The notes: generated by a model from the letters alone, not told the origin. 64,000 nucleotides of DNA from Patescibacteria group bacterium (GCA_041660165.1 JBAZWW010000003.1:4352-68351), one strand, 5' to 3'; positions 1 through 48,299 are shown, counted from the stretch's first letter. Numbers and translations are program-made.

Positions 1-580
1 CTAGCTCATTCTTCTCAACCAGCCAAAGCGCGTGACCAAGAATAGTTGCGGTCAGCAAATAGAGCGCCAGCATGCTTGGTAAACCAATGGTCCCGCCGGA
101 AATACCCGTAGCCCCCTGGACAAAGGCGATCAGGACAAACACGCTCAAAAGGGCGCTTGAAACAAAAAAGACTGAAAACACCTTTCTTTGAAGATGACGG
201 TCACTGAGCAAGTGACTGCTCACAACAAGAAAGATCGCGAGCAACAAGGTTGAAAGAAAACTAATATATTCAGCCCCGCTTTCACCAAGCCAGCTGGTAT
301 AGGGCGCAATGGAAAACGAACTTGAAACCGCTGTCATGATGAGAATAAGCACCGGCAACAGGAAAAACCAGTGAGCTTTGAATGAAATCCTCCGCTCAGC
401 AATCATGCTTCCCATATATGCCAAGCTTCCAACAGTTGCCAGCACGACAAAGACAAAATTCTTATTGAAATCAAGCTGATCCGTGGTCCACGGAAAAGCC
501 ACAATCGGTATCAAGAAAACTATTGCACCCAATGATATCTGGGACACTTTTTCAAGAATTCGGCCAACGTGTATATTCAT
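1..580 (-). CDS. Polytopic membrane protein, N-terminal part; the gene runs off the left edge of the window
   Basis: ATG at 578-580 on the minus strand opens a frame with no stop before position 1. The translation MNIHVGRILEKVSQISLGAIVFLIPIVAFPWTTD... has several hydrophobic TM-like stretches. It is not in the ORF track because it is open-ended. Confidence 0.4.
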   Translation of the reverse strand, partial: MNIHVGRILEKVSQISLGAIVFLIPIVAFPWTTDQLDFNKNFVFVVLATVGSLAYMGSMIAERRISFKAHWFFLLPVLILIMTAVSSSFSIAPYTSWLGESGAEYISFLSTLLLAIFLVVSSHLLSDRHLQRKVFSVFFVSSALLSVFVLIAFVQGATGISGGTIGLPSMLALYLLTATILGHALWLVEKNEL

Positions 581-590
581 AAAACAAAAT

Positions 591-3500
591 TTACGGCGCT
601 GTAGGAGTGATGCTTGTAGCCCCCACGCCCAACGGATCAAGTATGACAGAAGCCGGATCTGTTGTCGCGGAAGCGTCAACGAGAGGAACATCGGTCGTGA
701 CGGGATCAACAGTTGATGCAATTGCTGAGGTATCGGTGGCTCCAGCAACTTCTGGTGCAGGGGCAGTCACAGAGTCAACGGGTACGTTAGTATCAGTGGG
801 GGTAGGTGTAACGGTCCCCGTGGCGGGAGTTAAAGTATCAAGGGGAGTAATCATGGGATCAGTCGCAACACTGGTTCCATTATCCGCAATGACGTCAGTT
901 GCGACGGGGCTTGTATCAAGAAGAGGGTCTGGTGCAGGTGCAGAAACAATAGGACTTATTGCTACCGGCTCAAAATCTTTTTGATAGGCAATGACAAGCC
1001 AGTCAACGGCCACGCCGTCCGTGTTAGCTGAATCATGAATCATAAAACCGCCGTTTGATTTGTCCGTGACATATATCTGGCCCGTAATACCCGCAGGCGT
1101 AACAACCACGCGATAGGAGGCGGTGTTTGAAATAACGTCGTTAAACTTTGGATCAATGGTGTCAAACACCACCTCTGACTGACCCATCATCAGCGTACTC
1201 GTTCCAGAAAGTTCGATAGTTTTCTGCCGGCTGGTAACCGCCAGCGTATCAACTAGCTCGTTCTGGTATGAAAGCACGCGCTCAGTGATTACGCCATTAG
1301 TCACAATGTCTCCATTTTGATTGATCTGCCAAGTATTGCCAATGCCCTCAAGCGAACCAACAGAGAGCATAGATCCTCCGTTCATGTTGAGCGAACCGGT
1401 GACATCAAGGTTGGACAGACTATTCATCGGAAGCTGAGAGATGGCCAGATTAGCATCGGGAGCGGAGTTTCCACCCGTGCCGGCGTAATAAGAAGCGCGA
1501 ATGAACACCACAATCTTCCCCTCGCCGGACGGCAGAGGCTCCATGGCATAGCCAAGAATCGGGCCGGCTTTCGTTGCCTTCATGGCATAGCCCGCCTTAG
1601 AGGACGTGGTTAGCGGATCGCCAATCGCCACCGCGCCATTCTCAGCCGAGACGTTCGTGGGCACTCGACCAGAGAGAGCAATCGGATAACTACCGTTAAC
1701 GTAATCGCCGGCCAGGAAGCCGGGGCGAGTTGAAACAACACCAGCCACACTCTTGTCATATGCCGTTGAGCTTGATTTTGCTACAGATTGTTCAGCTCCG
1801 CCAAACACCACCACATCGCCGGCCACGAGTGCGTCGCCGGATGGGAACATTTCTGCAAAGTCATAAGAACCAACGTTCCAACCGGCGGCGTTTGTCTTCA
1901 TGTACCCGGGGCCGGCAGTACTATCATAGAAAATGTAAGCTGTACTTTGCGCGGATCCTCGATCAGACGGGAATAGCTTGCCGGCCACAAACAAGTCGCC
2001 GGCGTTTGAAAAGGCCGCTACTTCCCCGCCAGTTCCGTCCTCAATTGAGAGACGATAATCGCCCAGGCTTGAAACCTTTGTGCGCAAACCCATGCTCACC
2101 GTCTCTGCACTTGAGCCATTCCAAGCCGAACCGTGCATCACTAAGCTGTTCGAGTTCGCAACCGGCGCGCCTGCCGTAGCCACCGCCAGAGCGGAAATAG
2201 TAATTCCGCCAGCAAACATAGGGCTTCCGTCAGGAGCGATGACATCCCCGCCGTACCAACTATTATCAACAAACACCGTAATCGTAGTCATGCCAACGCC
2301 GTTAAAGTTTGCCAGGGCACGCGCGATCACACGTCCTGGTTCCGTAGCCTTCATAGCGTATCCCGGCGTTGAAGATGCGGTCAGATAATCGCCCATCGCA
2401 ATTGGGCCGTTCTCGCTCGTAACGTGTAGTGGCACTCGGCCGTCAAGCGCAATAGGTAACGGATGCGCGCCCTGATCCTTAACGTTCGCACCGATAGTTT
2501 CATTTGGCGAAGTTGAAACAATGCCAAATAGAGTATCCGCGGAAACCGCACGGGTAAGAATTGGCAGGGTCTTCGTGACTGTGCCCGGAAGAATCTCTCC
2601 AGTGAACGCGTTACTTTCTTGAGCTTGATAGGTAAACATGGATCCCGTTAGTGCGACAATGTCGCCGTTACCTGGCGTCCCGTCGGTCTCATACCACTCA
2701 GCATAGTCAGCCGGGGCCGCAGAACAAGCCACAACATCTCGGGTGACATTTGTCGCCGCATCAACGTTCGCACCAGAATGACAAAGACCGTTTGTTGTTG
2801 CGAGGTTATCTAGACCAACAGACACAACACCCGCGGAAGTAACGCCCCACTCTATGCCACCGGTAATTGCCAGGGTACTTGTGGCATTCGCATTGCCAAT
2901 AGTAATTACGTCAGCGGTCGTACCGTTCGTGGCGATATTGATCACATCGGCGCCATCAACGGCGCCGGAGCCGCCAATATTCGTAGTGTGGCCACCGGAG
3001 ACATTGTTCAAATCCAATGAAGTATAACCAGCCACCACCACCCCGCTACCATACGTTGAAACAAATGTTACTCCGTTATTATTCCCTATGGTGATGTTGT
3101 CACCCGCAGTATTGTCAGTAGCAATGTTAATCGTATCCGCATCCGAGGAATTTGCAATATCAATCGTGTCACAGGCAACCGAACCACAAAGCGATACAGA
3201 AGTTGCATTCACATTTCCGATCGCTAGCGCCCCTGCGCCATTCGTATCCAACCCTTGGGCCGCTGCCACGGTAATCCCGCCGCTTGTCGCAACATCAAAA
3301 TTTGAAAAATCAATTGCCGCCCCGGTTCCGAGAATTACATTTGCGCCCACGTTCATTGCATTAACAATCGTGGAATCTGAGGCATCAATCGCGTCCGTAA
3401 AACCTGCAACTCCGGTCAAAATGATGCCATCATCCATCATCTCATTAGAATCTAAGTTACTGAGAGCAATCATGGCATCCGGGGTGCCGGTCAAAGCCAA

Positions 3501-5099
3501 CGGACCGCCGTCGTTAGCATTGGAAAGAGTCATCAGCGTGTTATAGGCCGTGCTTGCGGCCGCATCGTCAGTGAATGTCAGATCAATCACGTTAAGCGCG
3601 CTGTCCACGGAGTGCGTGCTGGCAATCGCTAAGTTCTCAGTTCCAGCTCCGCCTGTAACAAAGTTCATATTCACATCGGAGCCAAAAGTACCGGCATTGA
3701 ACGTGGCGGCGCCAGTCGCATCAATGCTCCAATCATTTCCGCCGGTGAGCACCAATGTGGTAGCCGCATTAGTATTTCCAATATCTACAGCATCTGGAAA
3801 AGCGGCTCCGGTACCGATATTGGTTGTTGTTCCGATTACCAAATTGTCATTAATACTAATTATTCCAGATTCTAGATTGATCGTTGACCCCGCGCTCTCG
3901 CTTCCAATGGAGACCGTATCCCCAGAAGTTCCATTCGTTGCAATGTTGATTGTATTCGCAAGATCAGTACTCACTCCGCCAATGTTAATAGTGGCCGAGC
4001 TAGCGACGGCGTCAAGAAAGTTAAACGTGGCGGATGATGATGTCAGGTCACCGCCGTTGAGCGCAAGATCACTTGCCGAGGTAATGAGTCCCGCGGTTGA
4101 AATATTCCAAGACGCTCCCCCTCCCAGCTGGAACGTCGTACCGGCGCCGGTATTTCCTATTGCTATTGCATCTGCAGTTGATCCTTCCGTAGCGATACTG
4201 ATGGTATTCCCAATATCTGCCGCGACCCCGCCAATATTGATGATCGGTGAGTTGCCAGCACCTTGCAAAAAATTGAACGTTCCCGCTGTCGAAGTGATCA
4301 CCCCACCATTAAGGGCTAGGTTGCCTGGCGTGACAAGACTATTCGAAAAAGATATTTGACCGTCCACCGTAAAAATTAAATCGCCTGTTATGTTCGTAGC
4401 AATAGTGGGGTCAGTAATAGCTCCACCCGAACTAAAAAAACGAAGAAGACCATTCGTAGTGCTATCCGTTCCGATATTCAGCTCCGCAGCGGCCGTATTG
4501 AAATACAGTGTACCTGCCGGCGGCGTGGTTCCTCCAATCACCAAGCCATCTGTGGTAGAGGTTAGGTACGTGGATGCGCCACCATCAGTCAACAAGGTAA
4601 GCGCAGTCGAGTCCAGTCCGTCGAGCGTATCAGCGTTAAGTGCGTACGGTGCCGCGACAATTTGTTTGCGTGGCGTAAGCGCCTCACCATTCACTGTCAC
4701 CTGGAGATATACCCCGGCATTGCTACCGAAAACGGTATCGGCTATTGCCGCGTAAGGAACGCCCGCGGCGGTATCGCCAAGATTTTCCGAAAAAAGCCCA
4801 TCGGTCAGGGTAACGGTTCGAGCCGTCGCGCTCGCACAAGTGGCGGATGAATTCGACCACAGACATGTGCCGGCGGAAAGAGCGTCATAAAACTCGAACA
4901 ACACGCTCGCGGTAGCCGTAGCAATAGGCACTCCGTTCGCATTCAGCAATCTGCCTTGATAACTGGTAATATTTGGGGCTGAGGCGGCCTGTACTGGCAA
5001 CACAAACAACGCGGAGAGGACCGCGTAACCAAGGAAAACAGGCACGAGGAAAATACTCGCGATTCTTTTCACGAATCGCTGAAAGACACGGTGATCCAT
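591..5099 (-). CDS. Giant secreted cell-surface repeat protein (1502 aa), beta-helix/adhesin-like, with a T/P-rich C-terminal tail
   Basis: Long ORF with N-terminal signal peptide (MDHRVFQRFVKRIASIFLVPVFLGYAVLSALFVLPVQAASA). It is extremely Thr/Gly/Ala/Asn/Ser-rich with recurring xIGNTxxxTxxxIGG / INIATxGTxxD(T/V)ITIGN repeats. There is an internal duplicated about 70-aa module (GRVPxxVSxENGxxAxGDxLTxSSxxGYAMKAT) and a C-terminal Pro/Thr/Asp linker. Confidence 0.8.
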   Translation of the reverse strand: MDHRVFQRFVKRIASIFLVPVFLGYAVLSALFVLPVQAASAPNITSYQGRLLNANGVPIATATASVLFEFYDALSAGTCLWSNSSATCASATARTVTLTDGLFSENLGDTAAGVPYAAIADTVFGSNAGVYLQVTVNGEALTPRKQIVAAPYALNADTLDGLDSTALTLLTDGGASTYLTSTTDGLVIGGTTPPAGTLYFNTAAAELNIGTDSTTNGLLRFFSSGGAITDPTIATNITGDLIFTVDGQISFSNSLVTPGNLALNGGVITSTAGTFNFLQGAGNSPIINIGGVAADIGNTISIATEGSTADAIAIGNTGAGTTFQLGGGASWNISTAGLITSASDLALNGGDLTSSSATFNFLDAVASSATINIGGVSTDLANTINIATNGTSGDTVSIGSESAGSTINLESGIISINDNLVIGTTTNIGTGAAFPDAVDIGNTNAATTLVLTGGNDWSIDATGAATFNAGTFGSDVNMNFVTGGAGTENLAIASTHSVDSALNVIDLTFTDDAAASTAYNTLMTLSNANDGGPLALTGTPDAMIALSNLDSNEMMDDGIILTGVAGFTDAIDASDSTIVNAMNVGANVILGTGAAIDFSNFDVATSGGITVAAAQGLDTNGAGALAIGNVNATSVSLCGSVACDTIDIANSSDADTINIATDNTAGDNITIGNNNGVTFVSTYGSGVVVAGYTSLDLNNVSGGHTTNIGGSGAVDGADVINIATNGTTADVITIGNANATSTLAITGGIEWGVTSAGVVSVGLDNLATTNGLCHSGANVDAATNVTRDVVACSAAPADYAEWYETDGTPGNGDIVALTGSMFTYQAQESNAFTGEILPGTVTKTLPILTRAVSADTLFGIVSTSPNETIGANVKDQGAHPLPIALDGRVPLHVTSENGPIAMGDYLTASSTPGYAMKATEPGRVIARALANFNGVGMTTITVFVDNSWYGGDVIAPDGSPMFAGGITISALAVATAGAPVANSNSLVMHGSAWNGSSAETVSMGLRTKVSSLGDYRLSIEDGTGGEVAAFSNAGDLFVAGKLFPSDRGSAQSTAYIFYDSTAGPGYMKTNAAGWNVGSYDFAEMFPSGDALVAGDVVVFGGAEQSVAKSSSTAYDKSVAGVVSTRPGFLAGDYVNGSYPIALSGRVPTNVSAENGAVAIGDPLTTSSKAGYAMKATKAGPILGYAMEPLPSGEGKIVVFIRASYYAGTGGNSAPDANLAISQLPMNSLSNLDVTGSLNMNGGSMLSVGSLEGIGNTWQINQNGDIVTNGVITERVLSYQNELVDTLAVTSRQKTIELSGTSTLMMGQSEVVFDTIDPKFNDVISNTASYRVVVTPAGITGQIYVTDKSNGGFMIHDSANTDGVAVDWLVIAYQKDFEPVAISPIVSAPAPDPLLDTSPVATDVIADNGTSVATDPMITPLDTLTPATGTVTPTPTDTNVPVDSVTAPAPEVAGATDTSAIASTVDPVTTDVPLVDASATTDPASVILDPLGVGATSITPTAP

Positions 5100-5139
5100 G
5101 TATCCTCCACTTAACTGTGATCAAGCGCGACATTCACGG

Positions 5140-7581
5140 TTAACGGCGCGGGCTCCTTCTTATCTCGGTAATCAATTGGGCGAACGATTTTCTCCGTAAA
5201 GCCAGGTTTGACGTAGCTACGTAGTACTCATTCGCGCCAAGAAGAAAAGAGTAGCGCCCTCGGCTATCCGTGAGTGTGGACTCGACAAGTTTATTATACC
5301 GCGGTTCAAAGAGCCGAACGACAACGTTCCCCAGCTGTGAGCGTGTAGCGGACTCAGTAACCAGACCCCAGCCCTTTGGCTTCTTTGGCCAGGCCAAGCG
5401 GATAGAAATAAAGAGCGAGAAAATCTGTACAATGAACATGACGACGGAGAACACGCTCGGCAACGTCAATACTACAAAAAGCGACAGCAAGACGCCGAGT
5501 GGGGACACGATCCGCTGGAAAACGCGAAAGAATCGTTTGAAGCGCAAACGGTTTTCGCCTTGAAACTGCGCTTTCGATGAAGGATCAAGAGGGATGTTCG
5601 CAGCTATCGTCGCATCCTTACTCGTCACACGGATAGCTTGCGTTGTATATACATCAAGAAAAGTGCCATCATCCTTCACGTTCGCAAGGTAAGCGCTTGG
5701 AAAGTTAAAACCGTTTTTTACCACCTTAATAATATATTCACCGGCCTCAGGAACAAACAGAAAATACTTACCTTCGGCGTTGGTAACCACGGATTTGATC
5801 AGCCGATTATCTGTCACTCGATAAAGTCTAACAATCGCCAGCTCAATGGGGATCTTGGTCATGGCGTTATAGACCACGCCAAAGTTTTTTCGTTTTCGCC
5901 TAGAGAATAAAAGCAATGGCGAGGTGATGAGATACTGAAGATACGCACCAAGGTTAAAGCTCGACGCCAGAATAATGGTAGATGAAACCGTAACGGCCGC
6001 GTTCACCGGCCCTGTAACGGTAGCCGTTGCCTGAGCCTCCGGAGACGCCAGCACGTCCGCCACGGCCTGCACAGCAACTGACGCCACCGCGCTTACGGCA
6101 GTTATTGCCTGAACCGCACCTACCGGCAGAATGGCAGAGACAACCGCCGGCACAACAGGAGCTATAGGAGGCACAATGGGAGGCGCCGGAATCTCCGCCA
6201 TTCGGCGCAACATAATTTGTCCGCCAAGAATCGTATTTCCCACAAAAATCGAGGCAGTCACTGACTCATAGCCATCGCGCTCAGCCACCAACGAATATTG
6301 CCCGTTTGGCGCATACCAACCAAAAGTGCCCCGCGCGGTTGATCGTTCGGGGTTCGCCTCTCCGTATTGCTGTGCATCAAAAAGAATCCTGGCTCCGCTG
6401 TCTATTCTATATGCGGTAACAATGACATTCTCTACCGGTACTTCCCGGCCGTCCTCCAGCGTCTCAAGCACGATTCCTGAACTTTGTGCATTGAGCGCAA
6501 TGGGTTCAATCTGCGTACCGCCGGCTTTTCTTGAAACAATAACATTGAGCACCTCATCAGCCCCGGGGGCAGTGATCATGCCGTCATACGTACCCGGACC
6601 TGATTGCGAAAGAACATACGTGGTATCCCCAACCATGACTGAAACCGCGGAGACTGCATCGGGACTTGAAACGGTCACCCGAACAATGGGCGAGGTTCCG
6701 GACAACACATTCACAGAGCCGTTAATGACCGGCAAGTTTAAACCGCCCGACGTCACGCTCACACCCACCTCAATCTGCGCGGTTGGAGTTCCGCCCCCCG
6801 GCGGAGGAGTGCTTGGACTTGGCGCCGGTGTGGGAGCAGGACCTGGCGCAGGGGCCGGAGCTGGTGCTGGTTCAGGCGCGGGGGCCGGAGGCGGTTCCGG
6901 CGGAGGAGGTTCTGGTACTGGTTCTGGAATTGGTTCTGGCGGGGGTGGGGGTGGAGGTGGAGGAGGTGGAGGCGGGAGAGAGTCGCCGGGAGGCGAAGGT
7001 GGAGACGCTACCGTCCCTGACACACCGGACGTCGATGCCGAAATAATCGGAATAGCGATTGACCCATTGTTAAGCGATGTTCCTGCAAGGTCAATGTAAT
7101 ACGTGCCAACCGTGGACGGATTTGTAATTCTATTTGCACCAGTTCCGGATGAGGATGCATTCGTACCAATTTCGATCGTAACCACATGGCCAGCCAATAC
7201 TGACCCTCCGTCTCCAGCGCAAACCGTTAGCGTAACAGTATTCGCCACCCGATCAATAGATACAGCCTCCGCGCCCGAACAATCAGGAGCCGTCGTCAGA
7301 TCCACGGCGTTATCCGCAACATCAACATCATCTTCAATGACAGAACTCACGGTGAAACCGCTTGGAAAAATAAGCGCGATGGTTTCACCGTCGTCCCATC
7401 CGGTAGCCAGCGTAAAAATAAATTTTTGATTCGAAAGCGCGCTCGTCACAAGCGTGCTCGGTTGCGAGGTTAAGGCCGAGACCGTAGCCGCACTCGCGAT
7501 CGACGAAAAAGAAAACATCCCGCTCATCAAAAAGACTGCGGAAAACAAAACAATAGCCACGCGCTTGAAATAGCCACCCAC
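5140..7581 (-). CDS. Secreted/membrane-anchored protein with poly-proline linker and three transthyretin/CarboxypepD_reg-like beta-sandwich modules
   Basis: 813-aa ORF with signal peptide (MGGYFKRVAIVLFSAVFLMSGMFSFSSIASAATV). It has a run of more than 12 Pro followed by PEPxPAP repeats, and C-terminal TM segments. Motifs such as VTAYRIDSGARILFDAQ...YSLVAERDGYE and VRLYRVTDNRLIKSVVTNAEGKYF are typical of carboxypeptidase-regulatory-like domains. Confidence 0.75.
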   Translation of the reverse strand: MGGYFKRVAIVLFSAVFLMSGMFSFSSIASAATVSALTSQPSTLVTSALSNQKFIFTLATGWDDGETIALIFPSGFTVSSVIEDDVDVADNAVDLTTAPDCSGAEAVSIDRVANTVTLTVCAGDGGSVLAGHVVTIEIGTNASSSGTGANRITNPSTVGTYYIDLAGTSLNNGSIAIPIISASTSGVSGTVASPPSPPGDSLPPPPPPPPPPPPPEPIPEPVPEPPPPEPPPAPAPEPAPAPAPAPGPAPTPAPSPSTPPPGGGTPTAQIEVGVSVTSGGLNLPVINGSVNVLSGTSPIVRVTVSSPDAVSAVSVMVGDTTYVLSQSGPGTYDGMITAPGADEVLNVIVSRKAGGTQIEPIALNAQSSGIVLETLEDGREVPVENVIVTAYRIDSGARILFDAQQYGEANPERSTARGTFGWYAPNGQYSLVAERDGYESVTASIFVGNTILGGQIMLRRMAEIPAPPIVPPIAPVVPAVVSAILPVGAVQAITAVSAVASVAVQAVADVLASPEAQATATVTGPVNAAVTVSSTIILASSFNLGAYLQYLITSPLLLFSRRKRKNFGVVYNAMTKIPIELAIVRLYRVTDNRLIKSVVTNAEGKYFLFVPEAGEYIIKVVKNGFNFPSAYLANVKDDGTFLDVYTTQAIRVTSKDATIAANIPLDPSSKAQFQGENRLRFKRFFRVFQRIVSPLGVLLSLFVVLTLPSVFSVVMFIVQIFSLFISIRLAWPKKPKGWGLVTESATRSQLGNVVVRLFEPRYNKLVESTLTDSRGRYSFLLGANEYYVATSNLALRRKSFAQLITEIRRSPRR

Positions 7582-7590
7582 AATTTTAGT

Positions 7591-8466
7591 TTACCTCCGT
7601 CTCCGCACGAAGATGATTATACCAAGCAACAAGACCGCGATGACGATGAACGCCCCGCCAAGCGACGAAACTGGAAAAAACCAAGCATTCGTTACCGCAT
7701 ATTGCGTGTTGCCATCCCAAAGCTCGAACCGATATTTGCCGAATACAAATGGCGAGAAATTCTGTACGCCATCCGGCCATTTTGCGCTCACCGAACGCGA
7801 GGTGCCGGTCGGTAGATGCTTTGGTACATTTGAAAGGAGGAATCGATCGACCTCCCTGCCAAACATATTTACCACGCGCACTTCGTTTGGAACGAAAAGC
7901 GTATCCGTTCCCGAATTTTGGGCGAGTTCTGAAAGGACAATCGGTTTGCCAAAGGAAAAACCAGGAATAGCTGAAAAATTTTGGATCTCTACTCTACTAT
8001 CATTACTCGCATCATTACTAGCAACGTGCACGAACAGAAGTGATGTCAGCGCCGTTCGCACAGAACCGGATTCATTACCGGCCGAGCCCTCAGTGACAAG
8101 TACCGCAATCGTAGGTGCCGACTCGGAAAATTCCTGCGGAATTGTCACGGAAATATTGACAGTCTTTTTCTCAGTAGCCGCAAGGGTGAATAATGACGGC
8201 GTAGCAATGACGCCCGAAGAAAGCAAAGGATTAAGCGTCCCTAATGAAAGATCCTCCGCATCCCCCCCGAATTCAGCAGACAAAAATGAAACGCGATAAC
8301 TCGCTTCTTTTGTAGAATTGTTTGTCACAACAATAGTGGCAGATGCGGATTCACCAATTTTCACCCGCAGATCGCTTGATTGAGGATTCACCGTAGTCGC
8401 AAAAGAAACACATGGCGCGCCAAGCAAACTAAGAAAGGTGAGCGCCAATAAAAATCGTGAAATCAT
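7591..8466 (-). CDS. Secreted protein with C-terminal transmembrane anchor and RRRR tail
   Basis: 291-aa ORF with N-terminal signal peptide (MISRFLLALTFLSLLGAPCVSFATT). It ends with a hydrophobic segment (GGAFIVIAVLLLGIIIFV) and then RRRR. It is tightly packed (2-nt gap) with flanking surface-protein genes on the same strand. Confidence 0.65.
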   Translation of the reverse strand: MISRFLLALTFLSLLGAPCVSFATTVNPQSSDLRVKIGESASATIVVTNNSTKEASYRVSFLSAEFGGDAEDLSLGTLNPLLSSGVIATPSLFTLAATEKKTVNISVTIPQEFSESAPTIAVLVTEGSAGNESGSVRTALTSLLFVHVASNDASNDSRVEIQNFSAIPGFSFGKPIVLSELAQNSGTDTLFVPNEVRVVNMFGREVDRFLLSNVPKHLPTGTSRSVSAKWPDGVQNFSPFVFGKYRFELWDGNTQYAVTNAWFFPVSSLGGAFIVIAVLLLGIIIFVRRRR

Positions 8467-8468
8467 AT

Positions 8469-9389
8469 TTAGTAATTACCAACAAACACGAAGGTTAGCG
8501 TTTGCGAATAGCTTCCGCCGGCCTGCGTAGCACTAACACCAACCTTCAGCGTCACAAAATCCCGCGCTTTTAGCGAGTTGTCTCCCCTGCTTGCCACCTG
8601 TTGAAGCGAAGTTGTGATAGCCGTATCCTGCGTATCAAATGTTGAGCTGGCAAGCGAGGTGTCTGAGGAGCGAGCGCCATACTCGGACGACCCCGCATCA
8701 ACTGAGCCATCTCCAACATCAGAAATCGTGTTGCCCCCATCCGATGGATTATGATTTTCGTATAAAAAAACACTATAGCCATTTGAAACATCCGCGGATG
8801 AGTCCCAACCAACGATACCAGTTGTAACTACACTACTTGAAAAGGTTCCAAGGGGAAGTGCGGTGCCAGACAGCTTATAAACGTAGTCATTCGATCCATC
8901 TATGGTCGGCGCTACACCGCCATCATGGAATTCATCCACGGTCAACGTAGAGCCTCCCACGACGGTCACTTTACCGATGGCCGAGACCTGAGAAGCACCG
9001 AGGTCCTGAACCACCGCGACGTAATCGCCTACAGAGTAGTCAACCGTGGACGTCACCGTTACCGTCGTTGAGACAAGTAGAGTGGTTGCTACCTGGGTTG
9101 AAGTATTCTCTGAGAAAACCTGGAACGCGACCGTGGGGTCATAAATACCGCCTCTATACCCCCCATCTTCGCGGTAGGAGGACGAAGAACCAATTCCCTG
9201 ATTAACTCCGATGGTGTCATGAAGCTTGTAAGAGGCGGAGGAACTCGTCTCACTTCCCCCATTTCCGACGCTATCCCACTGAATCTGATAATTGCTTGAG
9301 GACATCATTGACTCAGCCCTAAATGGAGCTAATGTTAGCAGAAAAAGAGATGCTGTAATGAAATAGTGATAACCGATATTCCTTCCCAT
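8469..9389 (-). CDS. Secreted Ser/Thr/Gly-rich protein
   Basis: 306-aa ORF with N-terminal signal peptide (MGRNIGYHYFITASLFLLTLAPFRAES). It has paired SSNYxIxWDSVGNGG...SSASYKLHDTIG motifs and is the first gene of the minus-strand surface locus. Confidence 0.6.
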   Translation of the reverse strand: MGRNIGYHYFITASLFLLTLAPFRAESMMSSSNYQIQWDSVGNGGSETSSSASYKLHDTIGVNQGIGSSSSYREDGGYRGGIYDPTVAFQVFSENTSTQVATTLLVSTTVTVTSTVDYSVGDYVAVVQDLGASQVSAIGKVTVVGGSTLTVDEFHDGGVAPTIDGSNDYVYKLSGTALPLGTFSSSVVTTGIVGWDSSADVSNGYSVFLYENHNPSDGGNTISDVGDGSVDAGSSEYGARSSDTSLASSTFDTQDTAITTSLQQVASRGDNSLKARDFVTLKVGVSATQAGGSYSQTLTFVFVGNY

Positions 9390-9422
9390 ATCGCTTATTG
9401 AGTACTATAGGTGTTCACCCCT

Positions 9423-9791
9423 TTATCCACAAGATAAAACTGTGGACAAACCTACGAACTGTAATGAAAAATCGTCATTTATACACAGATATTTTGTCTA
9501 CACCAGTGTAGCCAAATAAAGTTATCCCCAGCAATCGTTTTCATTACAGACTGTTACCAACTAATTCTATTTTTCCACCCACCAAACCATAGCAACCATC
9601 AGTTCACGTTAGGTTGCGGGTATATAAAATGGAATTCTTGGGAGGTAATCCGACCGGAATGATATTTTGTATACCTGCGACCAGCCAAGAAATTGGCGAT
9701 ACAAGTCGCTACGCATCTCATCACACATGGAACTTACAGCGTAGTTATCCTTCTCATACACATGTTATCCACAGTTTGTGGCGCTATCCAC
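9423..9791. promoter_or_regulatory. Cluster of DnaA-box-like sites in a 480-bp intergenic region upstream of the surface-protein operon
   Basis: Perfect TTATCCACA at 9423-9431 and 9764-9772. CTATCCACA at 9783-9791. TGTGGACAA at 9441-9449. A TATACACAGAT motif near 9484. Confidence 0.4.
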
Positions 9792-9837
9792 AGAGCTCAC
9801 TCAATAATACGTTCCATATGGGACATCCAAACACGAC

Positions 9838-9872
9838 AAACAAAAAACCTCCTACAAATTAGGAGATTTTCT
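9838..9872 (-). terminator. Rho-independent terminator downstream of tRNA-Ala
   Basis: Hairpin AACCTCCTacaaatTAGGAGATT; on the minus strand it is followed by TTTTTTG. Confidence 0.4.
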
Positions 9873-9873
9873 A

Positions 9874-9949
9874 TGGTGGACCAATGGGGATTCGAACCCC
9901 AGGCCTCAGCAATGCGAATGCTGCGCTCTACCAACTGAGCTATTGGCCC
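9874..9949 (-). tRNA. tRNA-Ala (anticodon CGC)
   Basis: Reverse complement is GGGCCAATAGCTCAGTTGGTAGAGCGCAGCATTCGCATTGCTGAGGCCTGGGGTTCGAATCCCCATTGGTCCACCA. It folds as a cloverleaf with a G3:U70 Ala identity pair. Anticodon loop is TTCGCAT. TTCGAAT T-loop and encoded CCA are present. Confidence 0.85.
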
Positions 9950-10104: not shown

Positions 10105-10180
10105 TGGTGCCCCCGCCCGGAATTGAACCAGGATCTAAGGCTTAGGAAGCCCCTGTTCTATCCAATTGAACTACGGGAGC
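10105..10180 (-). tRNA. tRNA-Arg (anticodon CCT)
   Basis: Reverse complement is GCTCCCGTAGTTCAATTGGATAGAACAGGGGCTTCCTAAGCCTTAGATCCTGGTTCAATTCCGGGCGGGGGCACCA. Anticodon loop TTCCTAA, T-loop TTCAATT, encoded CCA. Confidence 0.8.
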
Positions 10181-10295: not shown

Positions 10296-11414
10296 ATGCA
10301 ACCTGAAATTATCATCGTTATTATACTTCTCTTAGGACTTATTGGTGCAGTTATTGCGCTATATTTGAAGCTCAGCAATTCGTCCCAGTCGAAATCAGTC
10401 AGTGATCTCACCACTCGCCTCCAAGAAATGCGCGAGGAGCTCCAGCGTTCGCATTTTGAATCACGCACGGAGATGCAAATGCAATTGACTCGAGTGAATG
10501 ACAATGTTTACAAAGGACTGTCCGACTCACAGAAAACAATTCAGTCGCAATTCTCGCAGACATCGAAAATTATTGAGGACATCACCGCTAAACTGACCAC
10601 ACTTGATAACACGAACAAACAGGTGCTGGATTTTTCGTCGCAGTTGCAGAGCTTGCAAAACATTTTAAAGAATCCGAAACAGCGCGGAGTAGTTGGCGAG
10701 TATTGGCTGGAGGCATTACTCGGCAACGTTCTGCCAAAAGACTCCTATCAGATGCAGTATCACATGGGCACGGATGAAAATACCGGCAAGGAGCTCATTG
10801 CTGACGCAGTAATTTTCATTCGCGATCAAATCATTCCTATTGATGCAAAGTTTTCCTTGGAAAATTACAATCGCATCATGGAGGAACAAGATGCGGTGAA
10901 GCGCGAGCAGCTTGAAAAGGATTTGAAGACAGACATCAAGCTTCGGATTGATGAAACTGCAAAATACATCCAGCCACAGAAGGGGACCATGAATTTTTCG
11001 TTCATGTTTTTACCGGCAGAAGGCGTCTATTACAACTTGATGAATGCGGAGATAGGCAGTGGAATCAATAGCCGGAGCCTCATTGAGTATGCATTCGCAA
11101 AACACGTCATGATCGTCTCGCCTACGTCTTTCTTCGCGTATTTACAAACGGTCTTGCTTGGCATGCGTGAATTACAACTAGAAAAATCAACGCAGGATAT
11201 TTTGAAGCGCGTGGCAGATCTTGGGAAACATGTCCGTTCATATGCCGAGTGTCATGACAAAATCGGCAAACAACTCGCTACGGTAGTGGGGAACTACAAC
11301 GTCTCATCAAACGAGCTCAAAAAAGTCCACAAGGACGCGCTAAAAATTACTTCGGGCGACATGGATGATTTGATCGAGGTAGAACTCGTTGAGAAACCAC
11401 TACTTGAGGGGTAA
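10296..11414 (+). CDS. rmuC: DNA recombination protein RmuC
   Basis: 372 aa with N-terminal TM helix and coiled-coil. Conserved RmuC core: GVVGEYWLEALLGNVLP...IIPIDAKFSLENY...NFSFMFLPAEGVYY. Confidence 0.8.
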   Translation: MQPEIIIVIILLLGLIGAVIALYLKLSNSSQSKSVSDLTTRLQEMREELQRSHFESRTEMQMQLTRVNDNVYKGLSDSQKTIQSQFSQTSKIIEDITAKLTTLDNTNKQVLDFSSQLQSLQNILKNPKQRGVVGEYWLEALLGNVLPKDSYQMQYHMGTDENTGKELIADAVIFIRDQIIPIDAKFSLENYNRIMEEQDAVKREQLEKDLKTDIKLRIDETAKYIQPQKGTMNFSFMFLPAEGVYYNLMNAEIGSGINSRSLIEYAFAKHVMIVSPTSFFAYLQTVLLGMRELQLEKSTQDILKRVADLGKHVRSYAECHDKIGKQLATVVGNYNVSSNELKKVHKDALKITSGDMDDLIEVELVEKPLLEG

Positions 11415-11462
11415 TGTAGATTGACACAGATCAATGCGCGGGACAGATTTTACACAGATTAC

Positions 11463-11492
11463 AAAAGCGCAGGATCGCTCCCGCGCTTTTTG
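11463..11492. terminator. Bidirectional rho-independent terminator between convergent rmuC and rpsT
   Basis: AAAAGCGCaggatcgctcccGCGCTTTTTG hairpin flanked by A- and T-runs. It is embedded in ACACAGAT-motif inverted repeats (11419-11545). Confidence 0.5.
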
Positions 11493-11546
11493 CATCTGAT
11501 CTGTGACAATCTGTCGCACCATTCGAGATCTATGTAAATCTACTAC

Positions 11547-11813
11547 TTACTTCTTCGCTTTTGCCAGCGCTTTCATGGCTCGGCTCTTCACACGGTCAAC
11601 GGTGTTGGCTTTCATGAGGTTCTTACCGGCGGCCTTGTCCAAAACCTGGTTCAAATCGGCCATGAGCTTCTCTGCTTCTGCAAACTTTTTCTCTTCAAGC
11701 AATTTACGGAAGCTCCTTCGAATGTACTCAATCTTGGCGCGTCCATTGGCATTTCTCTCAGCACGTACCAGGGCCTGACGGAACGCTTTCTTCGCATTAT
11801 CCAAATTTGGCAT
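11547..11813 (-). CDS. rpsT: 30S ribosomal protein S20
   Basis: Internal Met of ORF 11547..11927 gives MPNLDNAKKAFRQALVRAERNANGRAK...LDKAAGKNLMKANTVDRVKSRAMKALAKAKK, a classic S20 sequence of 88 aa. Confidence 0.8.
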   Translation of the reverse strand: MPNLDNAKKAFRQALVRAERNANGRAKIEYIRRSFRKLLEEKKFAEAEKLMADLNQVLDKAAGKNLMKANTVDRVKSRAMKALAKAKK

Positions 11814-11933
11814 AGATTTTCTTACGGTCGCATTGGCGCCGTAGCAGTCGAGACGATGCTCGACCAGTGATTTAGTGAGGGGAATATAGCGGAAAAGGGC
11901 AGGTGAGTCAAGAAACCCTGGCCCCAATTCTAC

Positions 11934-11953
11934 CCCTCCTCACGTCGGGGTGG
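11934..11953. repeat. Short GC-rich intergenic repeat CCCCTCCTCACGTCGGGGTGG (type 2)
   Basis: Near-identical copies at 16348-16369 and 33686-33706. Confidence 0.5.
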
Positions 11954-11987
11954 AAAACTGAAACCCGCACATGGAACTGGTAAACAA

Positions 11988-12959
11988 CTAAATCAGCCAC
12001 TCGCTCACCAAGCGATCAACGGAAATATCTGATTTGATGCCAGATTTCATGCCAAGGTCTAGTTTTTGGGCGAGTTCGTGGGTTTTAGTGAGATCGGCCA
12101 TGGTCCAGGCTCTTACCTCGCCCAGGAGTTTTTGCGCCACAAATGGGTGAACGGATAGGGAAGTGGCGATGTCCTGTTTTTGCGCCGTAGGCTTTTCGTC
12201 TAGGACTGCTCGCGCTTGGAGCAAAAGTCGAACTTGCCGAAGTAACATGCCGAACAGTTGAAAATCCTCCGCGCCTGCTTTTCTCTCGGCAAATAACTTT
12301 TCAAGGGCTTTTCGAGGAACCGGCGAGGCGAGCGCATCCATAAAACCAAAGATATCGGCCTCATAATCCGTTCGCACCAGGAGATCAACCATCTCCATGG
12401 TCACAGATTCCTTTCCGGCATAGGCCGAGAGTTTATGAAGCTCGGCGTCTGTTCTCCAAGCATCGTCCTTCGTGCGTCGCAGGATTTCGTCGAGGATACT
12501 CGGCGCCATGACGAGTCCAAGTTTCACCACACGCTCGCGCGCCCAGGCTACAAGCTCGGCGCCCGCGAGTCTTGGCAGGGGGTAGGTGTGCACGTTCGGC
12601 AACGTCGATAATGTTTTGCCGAGTTCTTTTTTATCAAAAGCCTCTGGAGCCAAGTCGTCGAGAAAAATCACCACACTCGACTCCGGCGTCCTCGTGAATC
12701 CCTCGATCCACGGTTTTGACTCGGCCTTGGTAATGGCCTCGACCAAGTTATGAATGACGACCAGTCGTTTCTCGGACAAAAACGGCGAGGCTTGAACGGC
12801 CTGCATAATCGGCCCCGGCTCAAGATCTGCCTTGGTCCCAACTACAAATTCATCCACGTTCATACCAGTGGGATCGTATTTCTCCAGGAATTTCTGTTTG
12901 AGATCATCCGCGCGCTCCTTTACCCGCAAATGATCATCACCGTAGACAAAAAGCAACAT
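11988..12959 (-). CDS. holA: DNA polymerase III subunit delta
   Basis: ORF 11988..13001; likely start at MLLFVYGDDHLRVKERADDL. HolA-like architecture with YGDD.L motif at the N-terminus; about 323 aa. Confidence 0.65.
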   Translation of the reverse strand: MLLFVYGDDHLRVKERADDLKQKFLEKYDPTGMNVDEFVVGTKADLEPGPIMQAVQASPFLSEKRLVVIHNLVEAITKAESKPWIEGFTRTPESSVVIFLDDLAPEAFDKKELGKTLSTLPNVHTYPLPRLAGAELVAWARERVVKLGLVMAPSILDEILRRTKDDAWRTDAELHKLSAYAGKESVTMEMVDLLVRTDYEADIFGFMDALASPVPRKALEKLFAERKAGAEDFQLFGMLLRQVRLLLQARAVLDEKPTAQKQDIATSLSVHPFVAQKLLGEVRAWTMADLTKTHELAQKLDLGMKSGIKSDISVDRLVSEWLI

Positions 12960-13070
12960 ATGGCTGTAGGAGTCGACCCATGCGTCGACCCAACTGGTCA
13001 TATGAAAACACGTTTGACCGAGAAGGGGAAGACGGGATAGGGTGGTCTTCGTTCACCCCTTGGAGGTTTC

Positions 13071-38035: not shown

Positions 38036-38125
38036 TAACTGTGGATAACTTGGGTATAAGTAGGATAACTTGCACACTTCTTGTACTCAAAGGGTGAACA
38101 CCCCCTGTACTCGATTATCCACATG
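38033..38125. promoter_or_regulatory. DnaA-box cluster (second oriC-like element) with adjacent AT-rich stretch
   Basis: TGTGGATAA at 38040-38048. Three GGATAACTTG-type repeats (38033-38070). TTATCCACA at 38115-38123. AT-rich 38150-38205 (agatatataaattgtttacaatttgtac). Confidence 0.4.
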
Positions 38126-38596
38126 ACTAACGTATTTGGCTAATCCTAGAGATATATAAATTGTTTACAATTTGTACTCAGGTTATATACTGAATCCTGT
38201 AATCGTTCTTTCTAAATTCCGTCCTGTGGGTAAAACCACGGGAGTGACTCGGGGAAATTGCCGAAGCCCCACAAGATCTTCGGGATGACCTCACTTGCGC
38301 TCCTCACTCCATGGCTCCGCGGTTGATGGCGGTAGCATTTCGGGAAACCGTCACCTCATGGTCAGGGTAGGGCAATCAGTCAGTAGGTTTGGCAGGCAAG
38401 TGCATTCTGGCGTTGTGTCTGGTGTACGAGGACCCTCGCACTCCGAACCCAATGTCAGAGTTCATGAACCCCCAATCCGCCCGGTCGGGCTATGCTCGAC
38501 CACGGGGACTCGATCGCGGGGATATCTATCAGAAATCCCTTTGCAACCGAGCCCCCTTTTCTTTTTCAGGCGAATCGTATATCGTCTATCAATCAT

Positions 38597-46383: not shown

Positions 46384-46572
46384 TTACACAGATCGCAAAA
46401 ACGACGACAGATTTAACACAGATATGAGGTCCGATCCATGTCCATCTGTGTTTATCTGTGACAGAGGGCGATCTGTGTTCATCGAATGTCGAGTTACCCA
46501 CAGCCTATCCACACTTATCCACAACTTCACAGAAAGCTCAACACTTGCAATAGTTTGTGGGCTGTGGATAGA
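46384..46572. promoter_or_regulatory. oriC-like region upstream of dnaA: DnaA boxes plus ACACAGAT-type repeats
   Basis: CTATCCACA 46505-46513. TTATCCACA 46516-46524. TGTGGATAG 46564-46572. Five (T/A)ACACAGAT / ATCTGTG repeats at 46384-46485. Confidence 0.55.
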
Positions 46573-46616
46573 TTGGCTATGATACTTGATGTCGTTACTC
46601 CTAAACGCAATGCGCT

Positions 46617-48020
46617 ATGGAAATTGGTTCGCCCATGAATACTCACGAACTTTGGCAGGCTGTTCTGGCCCGCCTTGAACTCAAGCTGAGTAAAGCGCAT
46701 TTCAGTACGTGGTTCCGCCAAACCTTTGTTTGCGAATACCGAATAGGGGAGGCCATCATTGCCGTGCCGAACAACATTGCCCAGTCGTGGCTGGAAAAGA
46801 AGTATTACAAAGACATCCTTGAAGCACTCCAGGCCGTGACGGACCAGCCGATCCGTAAACTAACGGTTCGCATTGAAACAAAGCCCCTTCCGCCACAACC
46901 CATTCAGCTCACCGCGCAGAAGCCCGCCCCCGCTGATGACTACGGTTTCCTGCCAACCAATGGCGCAGAGCCAATGCAGGCGCCAACGGGCAACATTTCC
47001 GTTAATCCCATCTACACCTTTCAAACATTCGTCGTCGGCAAACAGAACGAACTCGCCCACGCCGCGTCACAGGCCGTCTCCTCTCAACCCGGCGGAACGT
47101 ATAACCCGCTCTTCATTTATGGAGGCGTCGGACTCGGCAAAACCCACCTACTGCATGCCATAGCCAACGAAATCCGCAGAAAGTGGCAAAACGCCCGTAT
47201 CATGTATGTAACGTGCGAGCATTTCACGAACGACTTCATTCACTCTATCCGCTCTGGTAAGGGCAAGGAATTCAAGGATCGCTACCGCAATGTTGATCTC
47301 CTGCTGATCGACGACATTCAGTTTATTACCGGCAAAGAGGGGACTCAGGAAGAGTTCTTCCATACCTTTAACACGCTCCACCAGGACAACAAGCAGATCG
47401 TCATCTCATCAGACCGTCCACCGAAATCGATCGCCGGCCTTGAAAAACGCCTGCAGTCCCGGCTCGAATGGGGCATGCTCGTAGACGTTGGCACGCCGGA
47501 TCTCGAAACCAGGATCGCCATTCTCGAAAAGAAGTGTCTCGAGAAAGGCTTTCCTCTAAATAAGGAGATCCTGCAGTACGTTGCCTCAACTGTTTCATCG
47601 AACGTTCGCGAACTTGAAGGCGCTTTGAACAAAATCATCGCCGTTCACCAGTTCCGCAACATGGAAGCAACCCTAGACACCATCAAACCGATTATTTCCA
47701 CGTTTGAGTCCGAAAACATCAAGAAAACTGTGACACCCAAGCAGGTCATCATGATCGTGGCGGCCTATTTCGACATTCAGATTGAGGACGTACTTGGCAA
47801 GTCTCGTGAAAAACGCCTAGCCTTCCCCCGACAGATCATCATGTTCTTACTTCGCGAGGAAATGAAGTCCTCGTACCCCACCATTGGCACAGAACTTGGC
47901 GGTAGAGATCACACCACTGCCATGCACGCACACTCAAAGATCATGAATATGCTTGATTCTGATGATAAACTTCAGAAAGACCTCGAGCTTATCAAGCAAC
48001 GCCTGTACACCGGTGTATAA
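46617..48020 (+). CDS. dnaA: Chromosomal replication initiator protein DnaA
   Basis: 467 aa. ELWQAVLARLELKLSKAHFSTWF (domain I). Walker A GGVGLGKTHLL. Walker B LLLIDDIQF. Sensor/box VII. C-terminal DNA-binding helix (HTTAMHAHSKI). The start may be the internal Met at 46635. Confidence 0.9.
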   Translation: MEIGSPMNTHELWQAVLARLELKLSKAHFSTWFRQTFVCEYRIGEAIIAVPNNIAQSWLEKKYYKDILEALQAVTDQPIRKLTVRIETKPLPPQPIQLTAQKPAPADDYGFLPTNGAEPMQAPTGNISVNPIYTFQTFVVGKQNELAHAASQAVSSQPGGTYNPLFIYGGVGLGKTHLLHAIANEIRRKWQNARIMYVTCEHFTNDFIHSIRSGKGKEFKDRYRNVDLLLIDDIQFITGKEGTQEEFFHTFNTLHQDNKQIVISSDRPPKSIAGLEKRLQSRLEWGMLVDVGTPDLETRIAILEKKCLEKGFPLNKEILQYVASTVSSNVRELEGALNKIIAVHQFRNMEATLDTIKPIISTFESENIKKTVTPKQVIMIVAAYFDIQIEDVLGKSREKRLAFPRQIIMFLLREEMKSSYPTIGTELGGRDHTTAMHAHSKIMNMLDSDDKLQKDLELIKQRLYTGV

Positions 48021-48063
48021 AAGGGGGACAACCTGTGAACTGAGGAAAACTTGTGTACAACCC

Positions 48064-48295
48064 CGTGGATAAGGGGAGGGATAACCAGTAGGATAACGCG
48101 GTGCATAAATGGGGGATAGATCGAGGAGCTTCAAACCTCGCTGACTTGCCCACCATCCGTCCAGTGCTCCGCGCAGGTTTTCTACACAACCGATAATCTC
48201 AAATAGGCCGATAGATAAAAGGCTTGCCGAGTTATCCGCCTTATCCACAGACTCTCTATTGTTACTGGTTCTTATATATAAATAATTCAGAAGCA
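48064..48295. promoter_or_regulatory. oriC between dnaA and dnaN: DnaA boxes and AT-rich DUE
   Basis: CGTGGATAA 48064-48072. GGGATAACC and AGGATAACG. TTATCCGCC 48232-48240. TTATCCACA 48241-48249. AT-rich cttatatataaataattcag 48271-48292. Confidence 0.55.
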
Positions 48296-48299
48296 ATCT

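Follow-up and report, generated by a model that had tools for sequence, protein, structure and literature searches.

We examined a minus-strand gene cluster at positions 591 to 9389 of a DNA stretch from a Patescibacteria group bacterium (GCA_041660165.1, JBAZWW010000003.1:4352-68351), the whole 64-kb length of which is referred to here as the window. Four open reading frames (ORFs), denoted A, B, C and D in the order of transcription, are packed tightly on this strand with intergenic gaps of 2, 9 and 40 nt, and a fifth, E, starts at position 580 on the same strand, 10 nt past D, and extends beyond the window start. The first-pass annotation had reported four consecutive minus-strand genes, 2 to 40 nt apart, all encoding signal-peptide proteins; our ORF check confirmed their sizes and spacing, and hydrophobic N-termini, from which signal peptides were inferred, were present in all four. 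On the other hand, the operon has five genes rather than four, with E being the fifth, and the giant protein said to head the locus is encoded by D, the fourth gene in transcription order and not the first. This operon of an ultrasmall, Uhrbacteria-type bacterium of the candidate phyla radiation (CPR) probably encodes a host-attachment organelle that is a variant of the Pam pilus.

The Pam pili of Ca. Mycosynbacter amalyticus (Saccharimonadia) are built from two-domain pilins joined by donor-strand exchange. Their major pilins have a nine-strand N-terminal domain, a linker strand that is donated, and a C-terminal domain, and assembly is usher-less, via the PapD-like chaperones PamC/D with a C-terminal transmembrane (TM) helix, with PamT as the predicted tip and PamR as the predicted anchor (Troman et al., bioRxiv 10.64898/2026.03.03.709456). 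Pam pilins have ranked 2nd and 9th in protein abundance. With a probability of roughly 0.55, we read the present locus as a divergent and minimal Pam-like donor-strand system (A and B), with C as a stalked base, D as a host-binding fibre and E as an accessory tetratricopeptide repeat (TPR) protein. The features of the locus and its surroundings are collected in Table 1.

Table 1. Features of the operon, its leader and its surroundings in the window, with residue numbers of the encoded proteins
Feature	Residues (aa)	Window position (nt)	Strand	Remarks
Gene A, secreted pilin-like subunit	306 aa	8469-9389	-
A, signal peptide	1-27	9309-9389	-
A, conserved N-terminal strand/motif region	28-84	9138-9308	-	Invariant Met is the first mature residue
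A, inserted beta-barrel domain	85-172	8874-9137	-
A, Pam-pilin-C-like C-terminal domain	173-306	8472-8873	-
Gene B, membrane-anchored two-domain PapD/CsuC/WxLIP-like chaperone or anchor	291 aa	7591-8466	-
B, beta-sandwich domains	24-149, 159-263		-	After signal peptide; AlphaFold2 model
B, C-terminal TM helix	266-290	7597-7671	-	Protein ends in RRRR
Gene C, membrane scaffold	813 aa	5140-7581	-	GTG start
C, conserved distal domain	31-195	6997-7491	-	After signal peptide; two invariant Cys
C, Pro-rich stalk	~196-262	6796-6996	-	Variable
C, Ig/CarboxypepD_reg-like domains, then TM region	TM region near 469-545		-
C, basic loop (RRKRK)			-	After TM region; putatively cytoplasmic
C, two further CarboxypepD_reg domains	Flanking TM hairpin near 697-735		-
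Gene D, mosaic fibre	1502 aa	591-5099	-
D, signal peptide or anchor	1-38		-
D, MAT-like N-terminal domain	39-165	4605-4985	-
D, T/G/N-rich ~88-aa repeats	166-775	2775-4604	-
D, knob/autochaperone-like module 1	~797-944	2268-2711	-
D, module 2	~1080-1200	1500-1862	-
D, C-terminal beta domain	1201-1390	930-1499	-
D, T/P-rich tail	1391-1502	594-929	-
Gene E, 5' part	193 codons in window	1-580	-	799 aa in full
Leader/promoter region		9390..9848	-	Between tRNA-Ala terminator hairpin and start of A; six DnaA-box-like 9-mers
Perfect leader boxes		9423-9431, 9765-9773
Other leader boxes		9441-9449, 9479-9487, 9522-9530, 9784-9792
tRNA genes, Ala(CGC) and Arg(CCU)		9874-9949 and 10105-10180	-	Flank the operon upstream
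Region with rmuC, rpsT and holA		10296-13001		Beyond the tRNA genes
Intergenic DnaA-box cluster		38040-38233		Three boxes, two perfect
DnaA-box clusters near dnaA/dnaN		46494-46571, 48064-48249, 49049-49068		Last one inside dnaN ORF
dnaA		46617-48020		At cumulative GC-skew minimum
dnaN		48300-49433		At cumulative GC-skew minimum

An NCBI protein of a 'Patescibacteria group bacterium' metagenome-assembled genome (MAG) shares 100% identity with protein B. The A family had 393 database matches and was found in 80 species-level genomes, most of them titled Candidatus Uhrbacteria, so that the search for homologous loci in CPR genomes, which the first-pass annotation had proposed, returned the operon from about 80 Uhrbacteria-type genomes. 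As judged by the titles or sources of the records, the named carriers are nearly always CPR lineages. Many carrier MAGs were titled 'uncultured Gammaproteobacteria bacterium', one 'Methylococcaceae' and one 'Kapaibacterium', which are likely wrong or placeholder taxonomy labels, or CPR contigs binned with the genome of the host. The order A-B-C-D on a single strand was essentially invariant across the ~80 loci. A B-like ORF immediately followed A in 75 of the 75 loci with enough sequence (with a C-terminal TM segment in 73), C-like genes occurred in 75 of the 80 loci, D occurred in 66 of the 80, and E was directly downstream of D in 27; the loci lacking C or D were mostly too short, and the counts for C, D and E represent essentially all loci long enough to show these genes. 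Mean column identity was 53% for A, 57% for the distal domain of C, 64% for the N-terminal domain of D and 25% for B. No second A- or B-type gene was found within 10 kb on either side in the 80 loci, nor elsewhere in the window. For the homologues of B, an exhaustive HMMER search was used instead of a word-indexed one, which gave 2.

The AlphaFold2 (AF2) model of B, with a predicted local distance difference test (pLDDT) score of 93.5, showed two beta-sandwich domains set between a signal helix and a C-terminal TM helix. Its top Foldseek match was the WxLIP of E. faecium (9i1y_A, E 7e-11), with CsuC being next (E 2e-10), and further matches included CfaA, Caf1M, FimC, PapD, SafB and EcpB, the matches to chaperones of chaperone-usher systems, about 40, being at E 1e-10 to 1e-7. 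These chaperone and WxLIP matches cover both domains, and those to WxLIP, CsuC, CfaA, Caf1M, FimC, PapD and EcpB were at probability 1.00. A profile of the B family (199 representatives) also matched EfmWxLIP1 (E 1.1e-8), which was the only significant sequence match of B to a solved structure. The Pfam family WxLIP_PGBD/DUF916 (PF06030) was matched by 17 of the 71 B-family members (best 3.5e-6) and DUF3324 by 1 of the 71; B of the window scored 16.6 bits against the PF06030 cut-off of 27.3, and had neither a Pfam gathering-level match nor a PHROG match. The AlphaFold and Foldseek check suggested earlier, run on A and B, thus gave two Ig-like (beta-sandwich) domains in B. The first-pass annotation was right about a 291-aa protein with a C-terminal TM anchor and RRRR, whereas its view of a merely anchored surface protein gives way to a PapD/WxLIP-type chaperone fold.

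Protein A is the likely partner of B in the Pam-like reading. It is indeed S/T/G-rich as first described (S 15.7%, G 11.8%, T 10.8%), whereas the SSNYxIxWDSVGNGG motif, which was said to be paired, occurs once as SSSNYQIQWDSVGNGG, followed by the looser relatives SSSASYKLHDTIG and SSSSYREDGGYRGG. Against NCBIfam, A matched the PamT model (NF058579) over aa 15-125 with E 9.5e-7 and 28 bits versus a cut-off of 240, and the Pam_pilin_C model (NF058581) over aa 174-306, covering profile positions 2-148 of 148, with E 2.8e-4 and 21 bits versus a cut-off of 55. PamT was matched by 43 of the 46 A-family members (best 1.1e-13) and Pam_pilin_C by 22 (best 7e-8), and no other NCBIfam family was matched by any of these 46. 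Under the NCBI rule, the Pam_pilin_C match of A indicates remote homology and not membership. A had no Pfam gathering-level match and no PHROG match, and nothing relevant was retrieved when the A-family profile was compared with a copy of the PDB sequences that was without the Pam structures.

In the AF2 monomer of A (mean pLDDT 80.7), aa 84-172 and aa 173-306 each formed a confident beta domain, and aa 24-83 fell below pLDDT 50. Since the N-terminal ~55 residues are unstructured in the monomer and yet strongly conserved (aa 28-84 being conserved like the folded core, 0.67 vs 0.62-0.66), a putative inter-subunit strand would account for them more easily. The fold matches of A were weak yet coherent, with none reaching E 1e-3 in Foldseek: the C-terminal domain was weakly like the donor-strand pilins CsuA/B, CfaB and PapA, and the middle domain resembled tailspike barrel domains. 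The C-terminal strand of A, which is conserved and carries Gly at -14 and Tyr at its end, may be a further likeness to chaperone-usher subunits.

At least 24 codons are open upstream of the invariant Met in all of the ~80 related loci, and the stretch that they encode has a hydrophobic core and closes with A-x-A, so the signal peptide of A is real and the Met is the first mature residue. Gene callers often start A at Met28/29, which yields a 279-aa product without signal peptide, and the public gene calls for many A-family members, including that of the source contig, are 277-280 aa long and start at the invariant internal Met (nt 9306-9389 are affected). As these calls drop the signal peptide, A would be hidden from secretome predictions.

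The kinship of B with WxLIP, which is the DUF916-DUF3324-TM protein of the WxL clusters of Firmicutes (PMC10599100; PDB 9i1y, 9i25), brings in a second explanation, namely a non-filamentous display in which B stays strand-bound to A and so fastens A, one molecule at a time, to membrane or wall, with C and D acting as separate adhesins and no pilus being formed. WxLIP is both the sole significant sequence match of B to a solved structure and its top Foldseek match, WxLIP_PGBD matches occur in the B family and in the Paceibacteria homologues described below, and there is one A-type gene per locus, a PamT-like one. The two systems are also alike in that B, homologous to WxLIP in sequence and structure, has two Ig-like domains and a C-terminal TM helix, and is encoded beside a secreted protein that is presumably complemented by a beta-strand. 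However, there is no WxL-domain protein at the locus (no Pfam WxL match in A, C or D, and no WxL chain among the listed fold matches of A) and no LPXTG partner; A is Pam-pilin-like, its only family matches being the Pam pilin models; its N-terminal 55 residues are more easily explained as an inter-subunit strand; and the organism belongs to the CPR. We therefore regard a display of this kind as unlikely, though worth keeping in mind, and prefer the Pam-like donor-strand system.

The third gene encodes a protein in which everything listed by the first-pass annotation (813 aa, more than 12 Pro, PEPxPAP repeats, three CarbPepD_reg modules and TM segments) was found: C has 13 Pro in a row, repeats of the PEPxPAP type and TM segments, and it matched Pfam CarboxypepD_reg in 3 stretches (E 1.4e-10). 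Its TM layout is kept in the homologues, and in the family of its distal domain C71 and C91 are invariant. No PDB match was found for the distal domain, and the possibility that it is a paralogue of the pilin A was rejected (hhalign probability of 0.6%, no PDB match). The only PHROG match of C was weak (E 0.002), and the function of that PHROG is unknown. E, which is complete on the source contig (L081 14520-16919) and is followed there by ychF, consists of a polytopic membrane domain and C-terminal TPR repeats. The membrane domain had no match in Pfam, NCBIfam or PDB, and an O-antigen-ligase/GT-C identity was not supported, as no family matched.

For D, composition (A 13%, T 12%, G 11.5%, N 7%) and repeat scores bear out the earlier description of a 1502-aa T/G/N-rich repeat protein with IGNT/INIAT motifs and a T/P-rich stalk. 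The ~88-aa repeats are significant (Smith-Waterman score of 186 vs 48 +/- 8 in shuffles), the tail has 21% Thr and 15% Pro, and modules 1 and 2 are duplicates of each other (166 vs 33 +/- 5 in shuffles). The N-terminal domain matched Bdello_MAT_N (NF053851) with E 3.9e-6 and 29.1 bits versus a cut-off of 60, and all 34 of the 34 members of the D N-domain family matched it (best 1.6e-9), which indicates a consistent though remote homologue, below the formal cut-off, of the N-terminal domain of the Bdellovibrio mosaic adhesive trimer (MAT) proteins. In Bdellovibrio, this domain is believed to be located at the surface of the predator and to carry variable adhesive tips (PMC10769870). The likeness to MAT fibres extends to the build of D, in which a conserved N-domain is followed by variable mosaic distal modules, and to the bearer being a bacterium that lives on other bacteria. 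Across the related loci, the N-domain was found in 66 of 66, the repeat region in 12 and the T/P-rich tail in none; D is thus a mosaic on a constant N-domain.

The profile of the duplicated modules matched the C-terminal fragment of phi29 gp12 (3gqh_A, E 0.002), an auto-cleaved autochaperone, and the match opens at the first residues of the fragment, where its DFAEYF aligns with DFAEMF and DYAEWY of the D modules. As both modules open with D[FY]AE[MW][FY], like the autocleaved gp12 fragment, D may be auto-processed at one or both sites. Other phage-like matches, weak like that to gp12, were those of the module profile to the phi29 head fibre (E 0.007), of the C-terminal beta domain to K1-lyase_C (E 1.9e-4), and of D to Phage_cement_2. 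D had no S74 match, no Pfam gathering-level match and no PHROG match, and its comparison by sequence with the PDB gave noise only. The MAT superfamily is marked by a beta-prism shaft of three intertwined chains and a C-terminal tip that varies, with an S74 autochaperone in some. D differs from MAT and gp12 in that its MAT match is sub-threshold (29 vs 60 bits), there is no S74 domain, two autochaperone-like modules are internal instead of one being terminal, and the gene is set in a pilin-chaperone operon; trimerization and cleavage are putative.

The first-pass annotation had seen in this locus a dedicated adhesion or surface-layer apparatus headed by a beta-helix-like repeat protein. In general form, this would be an adhesion or S-layer apparatus with a giant parallel beta-helix adhesin and three accessory surface proteins lacking a particular mechanism. 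All proteins are indeed secreted or membrane proteins, D has T/G/N-rich periodic repeats, and C has Ig-like and CarboxypepD_reg modules, and in spirit the adhesion or surface apparatus of a CPR episymbiont stands as a conserved secreted and membrane operon. Yet it is A and B that are conserved most and paired without exception, rather than D, whose repeats occur in only 12 of the 66 loci, the chaperone fold of B is specific, and the recognisable parts of D (MAT-N and the tailspike autochaperone-like modules) point to a trimeric fibre. Nothing supports an S-layer, with no resemblance to known S-layer proteins being found. Hence, this broader explanation appears improbable compared with a Pam-like system that carries a fibre.

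Two more loci were reached through a distant homologue of B in a Paceibacteria MAG (L083 1928-5895 and the L084 5204-7644 region). Their A homologue is short (192-219 aa), with a signal peptide, the N-motif and the C-terminal domain and without the middle domain, and the A profile matched it (E 2e-26) at profile positions 3-80 and, as a second piece, at 174-301. The next gene is B-like with a precomputed PF06030 match. The third gene encodes a protein of 311-323 aa, the C-terminal part of which (~192-313) matched the X-module-dockerin 4u3s_B (E 5.5e-6) and the N-terminal part of which looked FnIII-like by eye. The fourth is C-like, with the same TM/CarboxypepD_reg half and a different N-terminal domain, which looked like a cohesin but had no PDB match, so that support was obtained for the X-dockerin of the partner alone. 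The conserved core thus consists of a pilin (N-motif and C-terminal domain), a membrane-anchored chaperone and a C-type scaffold. Since the partner varies by lineage, being the dockerin protein in Paceibacteria and D and E in the window, C is a plausible docking base, and C-type scaffolds may present a partner protein on the distal domain. A palindrome, GTTTCA[CT][GA]TGAAAC, was present in six copies in the 1.1-kb intergenic region that separates rmuC from the pilin gene in L084 (2722-3430) and in two copies upstream of the pilin gene in L083 (67-123); none was found in the window.

In the window, the operon has tRNA-Ala(CGC) and tRNA-Arg(CCU) as its immediate upstream neighbours, with rmuC, rpsT and holA next to them. 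The called genes of L084 include rmuC, rpsT and holA as well, and a tRNA-Arg-like sequence was seen by eye. These common neighbours place the operon at a conserved chromosomal position across CPR classes, and this bears on the idea that D and its neighbours are a prophage or tail-fibre remnant, derived from phage and without cellular function. The weak phage-like modules of D (phi29 gp12, head fibre, K1-lyase_C and Phage_cement_2) and the tailspike-like middle domain of A could be taken that way. On the contrary, the position beside rmuC-rpsT-holA and tRNA-Arg is the same in two CPR classes, one collinear operon is kept in ~80 species-level genomes, phage genes are absent from the flanks, and PHROG gave no match for A, B or D and only the weak one for C. 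A prophage origin was rejected on synteny, and we consider it very improbable.

Taken as a Pam-like donor-strand system, the operon could work as follows. With Sec-type N-terminal signals on all of them at the sequence level, the products would act outside the cytoplasmic membrane. B, held in the membrane by its C-terminal helix, would donate a strand to the C-terminal domain of A, which is Ig-like and incomplete, and thereby cap it, and A would then be handed to the next acceptor through strand exchange, the likeliest donor being the invariant strand region at the N-terminus of mature A. This could end in a filament of A, or else leave A on display at a membrane anchor. C, as its architecture and co-conservation suggest, may be a membrane-embedded base whose proline stalk pushes the disulfide-bonded distal domain through the envelope. 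D may be a trimeric phage-tailspike/MAT-like fibre, with its invariant N-domain docking to the cell, plausibly on the distal domain of C or on the structure made by A, and with its variable distal modules binding the host. The TPR membrane protein E would have an accessory role. Perhaps the DnaA boxes in the leader couple the expression of the operon, or the local titration of DnaA, to the replication initiator.

The DnaA-box-rich leader that had been reported upstream of the locus is real, about 10-fold enriched and conserved in two CPR classes. When TTATCCACA was taken as the DnaA-box motif and one mismatch was allowed, 27 matches were found in the window, versus 11.2 +/- 3.4 in shuffles, none of which attained 27, and six of the matches were within 9423-9792. 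In 75-80 related loci, the 400 non-coding nt upstream of A had a box density of 6.2/kb vs 0.65/kb in other non-coding DNA, and a perfect box was often located ~57-73 nt before the start codon of A. In the Paceibacteria loci, 7/9 and 3/6 boxes were just upstream of the pilin gene. All six perfect boxes of the window belong to four intergenic clusters: the A leader, 38040-38115, the region upstream of dnaA, and the dnaA-dnaN gap. As dnaA-dnaN, with box clusters of their own and the GC-skew minimum, are at ~46.5-49.4 kb, ~37 kb away, the A leader is not oriC, and we rejected it as an origin on the position of dnaA-dnaN; the probable replication origin is at 46494-49433. The genome has several origin-proximal DnaA-box clusters. 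An Rfam scan of the leader found no family beyond the two tRNAs, and promoter and terminator scans gave nothing exceeding shuffles.

In B. subtilis, some of the oriC-proximal DnaA-box clusters regulate adjacent genes (PMC3245932). Those clusters and the present one are alike in having canonical intergenic boxes within tens of kb of oriC, outside the origin and beside possibly regulated genes (PMC3245932), and differ in that here one cluster of predicted DnaA-binding sites is linked, across two CPR classes, to a surface-appendage operon.

When compared with the Pam system itself, the named carriers of the locus are nearly always CPR lineages, and it shares a Sec-exported pilin-type protein, the C-terminal domain of which covers the whole Pam pilin C model, a two-domain PapD-like protein that has a C-terminal TM helix and is encoded beside the pilin, the absence of usher and outer membrane, and a tail-fibre-like gene nearby, a 'tail fibre-like protein' having been reported as a conserved pam neighbour (10.64898/2026.03.03.709456). 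The differences are considerable. The scores of A are far below the family cut-offs; one PamT-like pilin gene with an inserted beta-barrel takes the place of PamA/B/E/T, and one chaperone-like gene that of PamC and PamD, with PamR being absent; C (the stalked scaffold) and E (the TPR membrane protein) are extra invariant genes; and the ATP synthase genes that belong to the conserved pam neighbourhood were not seen in the window. The records of the related loci are mostly titled Candidatus Uhrbacteria, with a short-pilin variant on contigs labelled Paceibacteria, whereas the preprint gives Saccharimonadia and Microgenomatia as the main carriers and mentions neither Uhrbacteria nor WxL (10.64898/2026.03.03.709456). 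A conserved DnaA-box leader is also undescribed for pam. As for chaperone-usher pili (archaic Csu and class 5 CFA/I), the chaperone fold of B (E 1e-10 to 1e-7) and the weak likeness of the C-terminal domain of A to CsuA/B, CfaB and PapA are shared, whereas the usher is missing (no usher domain, PF00577, in the four proteins A-D, with C being an alpha-helical membrane protein), there is no periplasm, the chaperone is membrane-anchored and the pilin has extra domains.

Several points weigh against a donor-strand pilus at this locus. Every Pam-family score of A is far under the curated NCBI cut-offs, and its S/T/G richness can inflate weak scores. The single pilin-like gene resembles PamT, and as PamT is predicted to be a strand-accepting tip subunit without a linker donor strand, A might not polymerise. 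The locus yielded no counterparts of PamR or PamA/B/E, and the window no ATP synthase alpha/beta motifs. The nearest sequence relative of B, WxLIP, is thought to hold a non-filamentous WxL protein, and B also matches RbmA (Foldseek E 2.8e-8), the fold assigned to the PamR anchor, so that the roles of chaperone and anchor are indistinguishable for B. The docking of D on C is likewise putative. Because sub-threshold scores or missing components set the locus apart from formal Pam, WxL, chaperone-usher and MAT systems, we file it as working like a Pam/chaperone-type system and not as a member of one.

We also put forward, as a tentative and rather doubtful extension of the Pam-like reading, a composite organelle shared by Uhrbacteria and Paceibacteria, in which an usher-less donor-strand system of one pilin and one membrane-anchored chaperone, the latter bridging in evolution the WxLIP proteins of Firmicutes, the Pam chaperones of CPR and the PapD type of Gram-negative bacteria, would be combined with the stalked scaffold C that docks the MAT-like, host-recognising D, and in which DnaA would gate transcription and so couple attachment to the cell cycle of an obligate episymbiont.

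Little is known about the way in which CPR/Patescibacteria locate their hosts and keep hold of them, and Pam pili have been known only since 2026, from one cultivated species of Saccharimonadia. A CPR donor-strand pilus with membrane-anchored chaperones was thus already known from the 2026 preprint; what is new is the distinct type of operon that Uhrbacteria and Paceibacteria carry, the link in sequence from a CPR chaperone to WxLIP, the coupling to a fibre and a stalked scaffold, and the conserved DnaA-box leader. All proteins of the operon fall under the current annotation thresholds and are hence labelled 'hypothetical'. The related pilin-chaperone module occurs in lineages that the Pam preprint did not highlight, in Uhrbacteria-type bacteria and, in a shorter form, in Paceibacteria, and its simpler and different gene set is tied to a phage-tail/MAT-like fibre, which is an obvious candidate for host specificity. 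The sequence homology of B to the WxLIP of Firmicutes suggests that bacteria lacking an outer membrane have a single, ancient family of donor-strand chaperones anchored in the membrane, and the conserved DnaA-box cluster before the operon suggests that replication control and the expression of a surface appendage may be linked.

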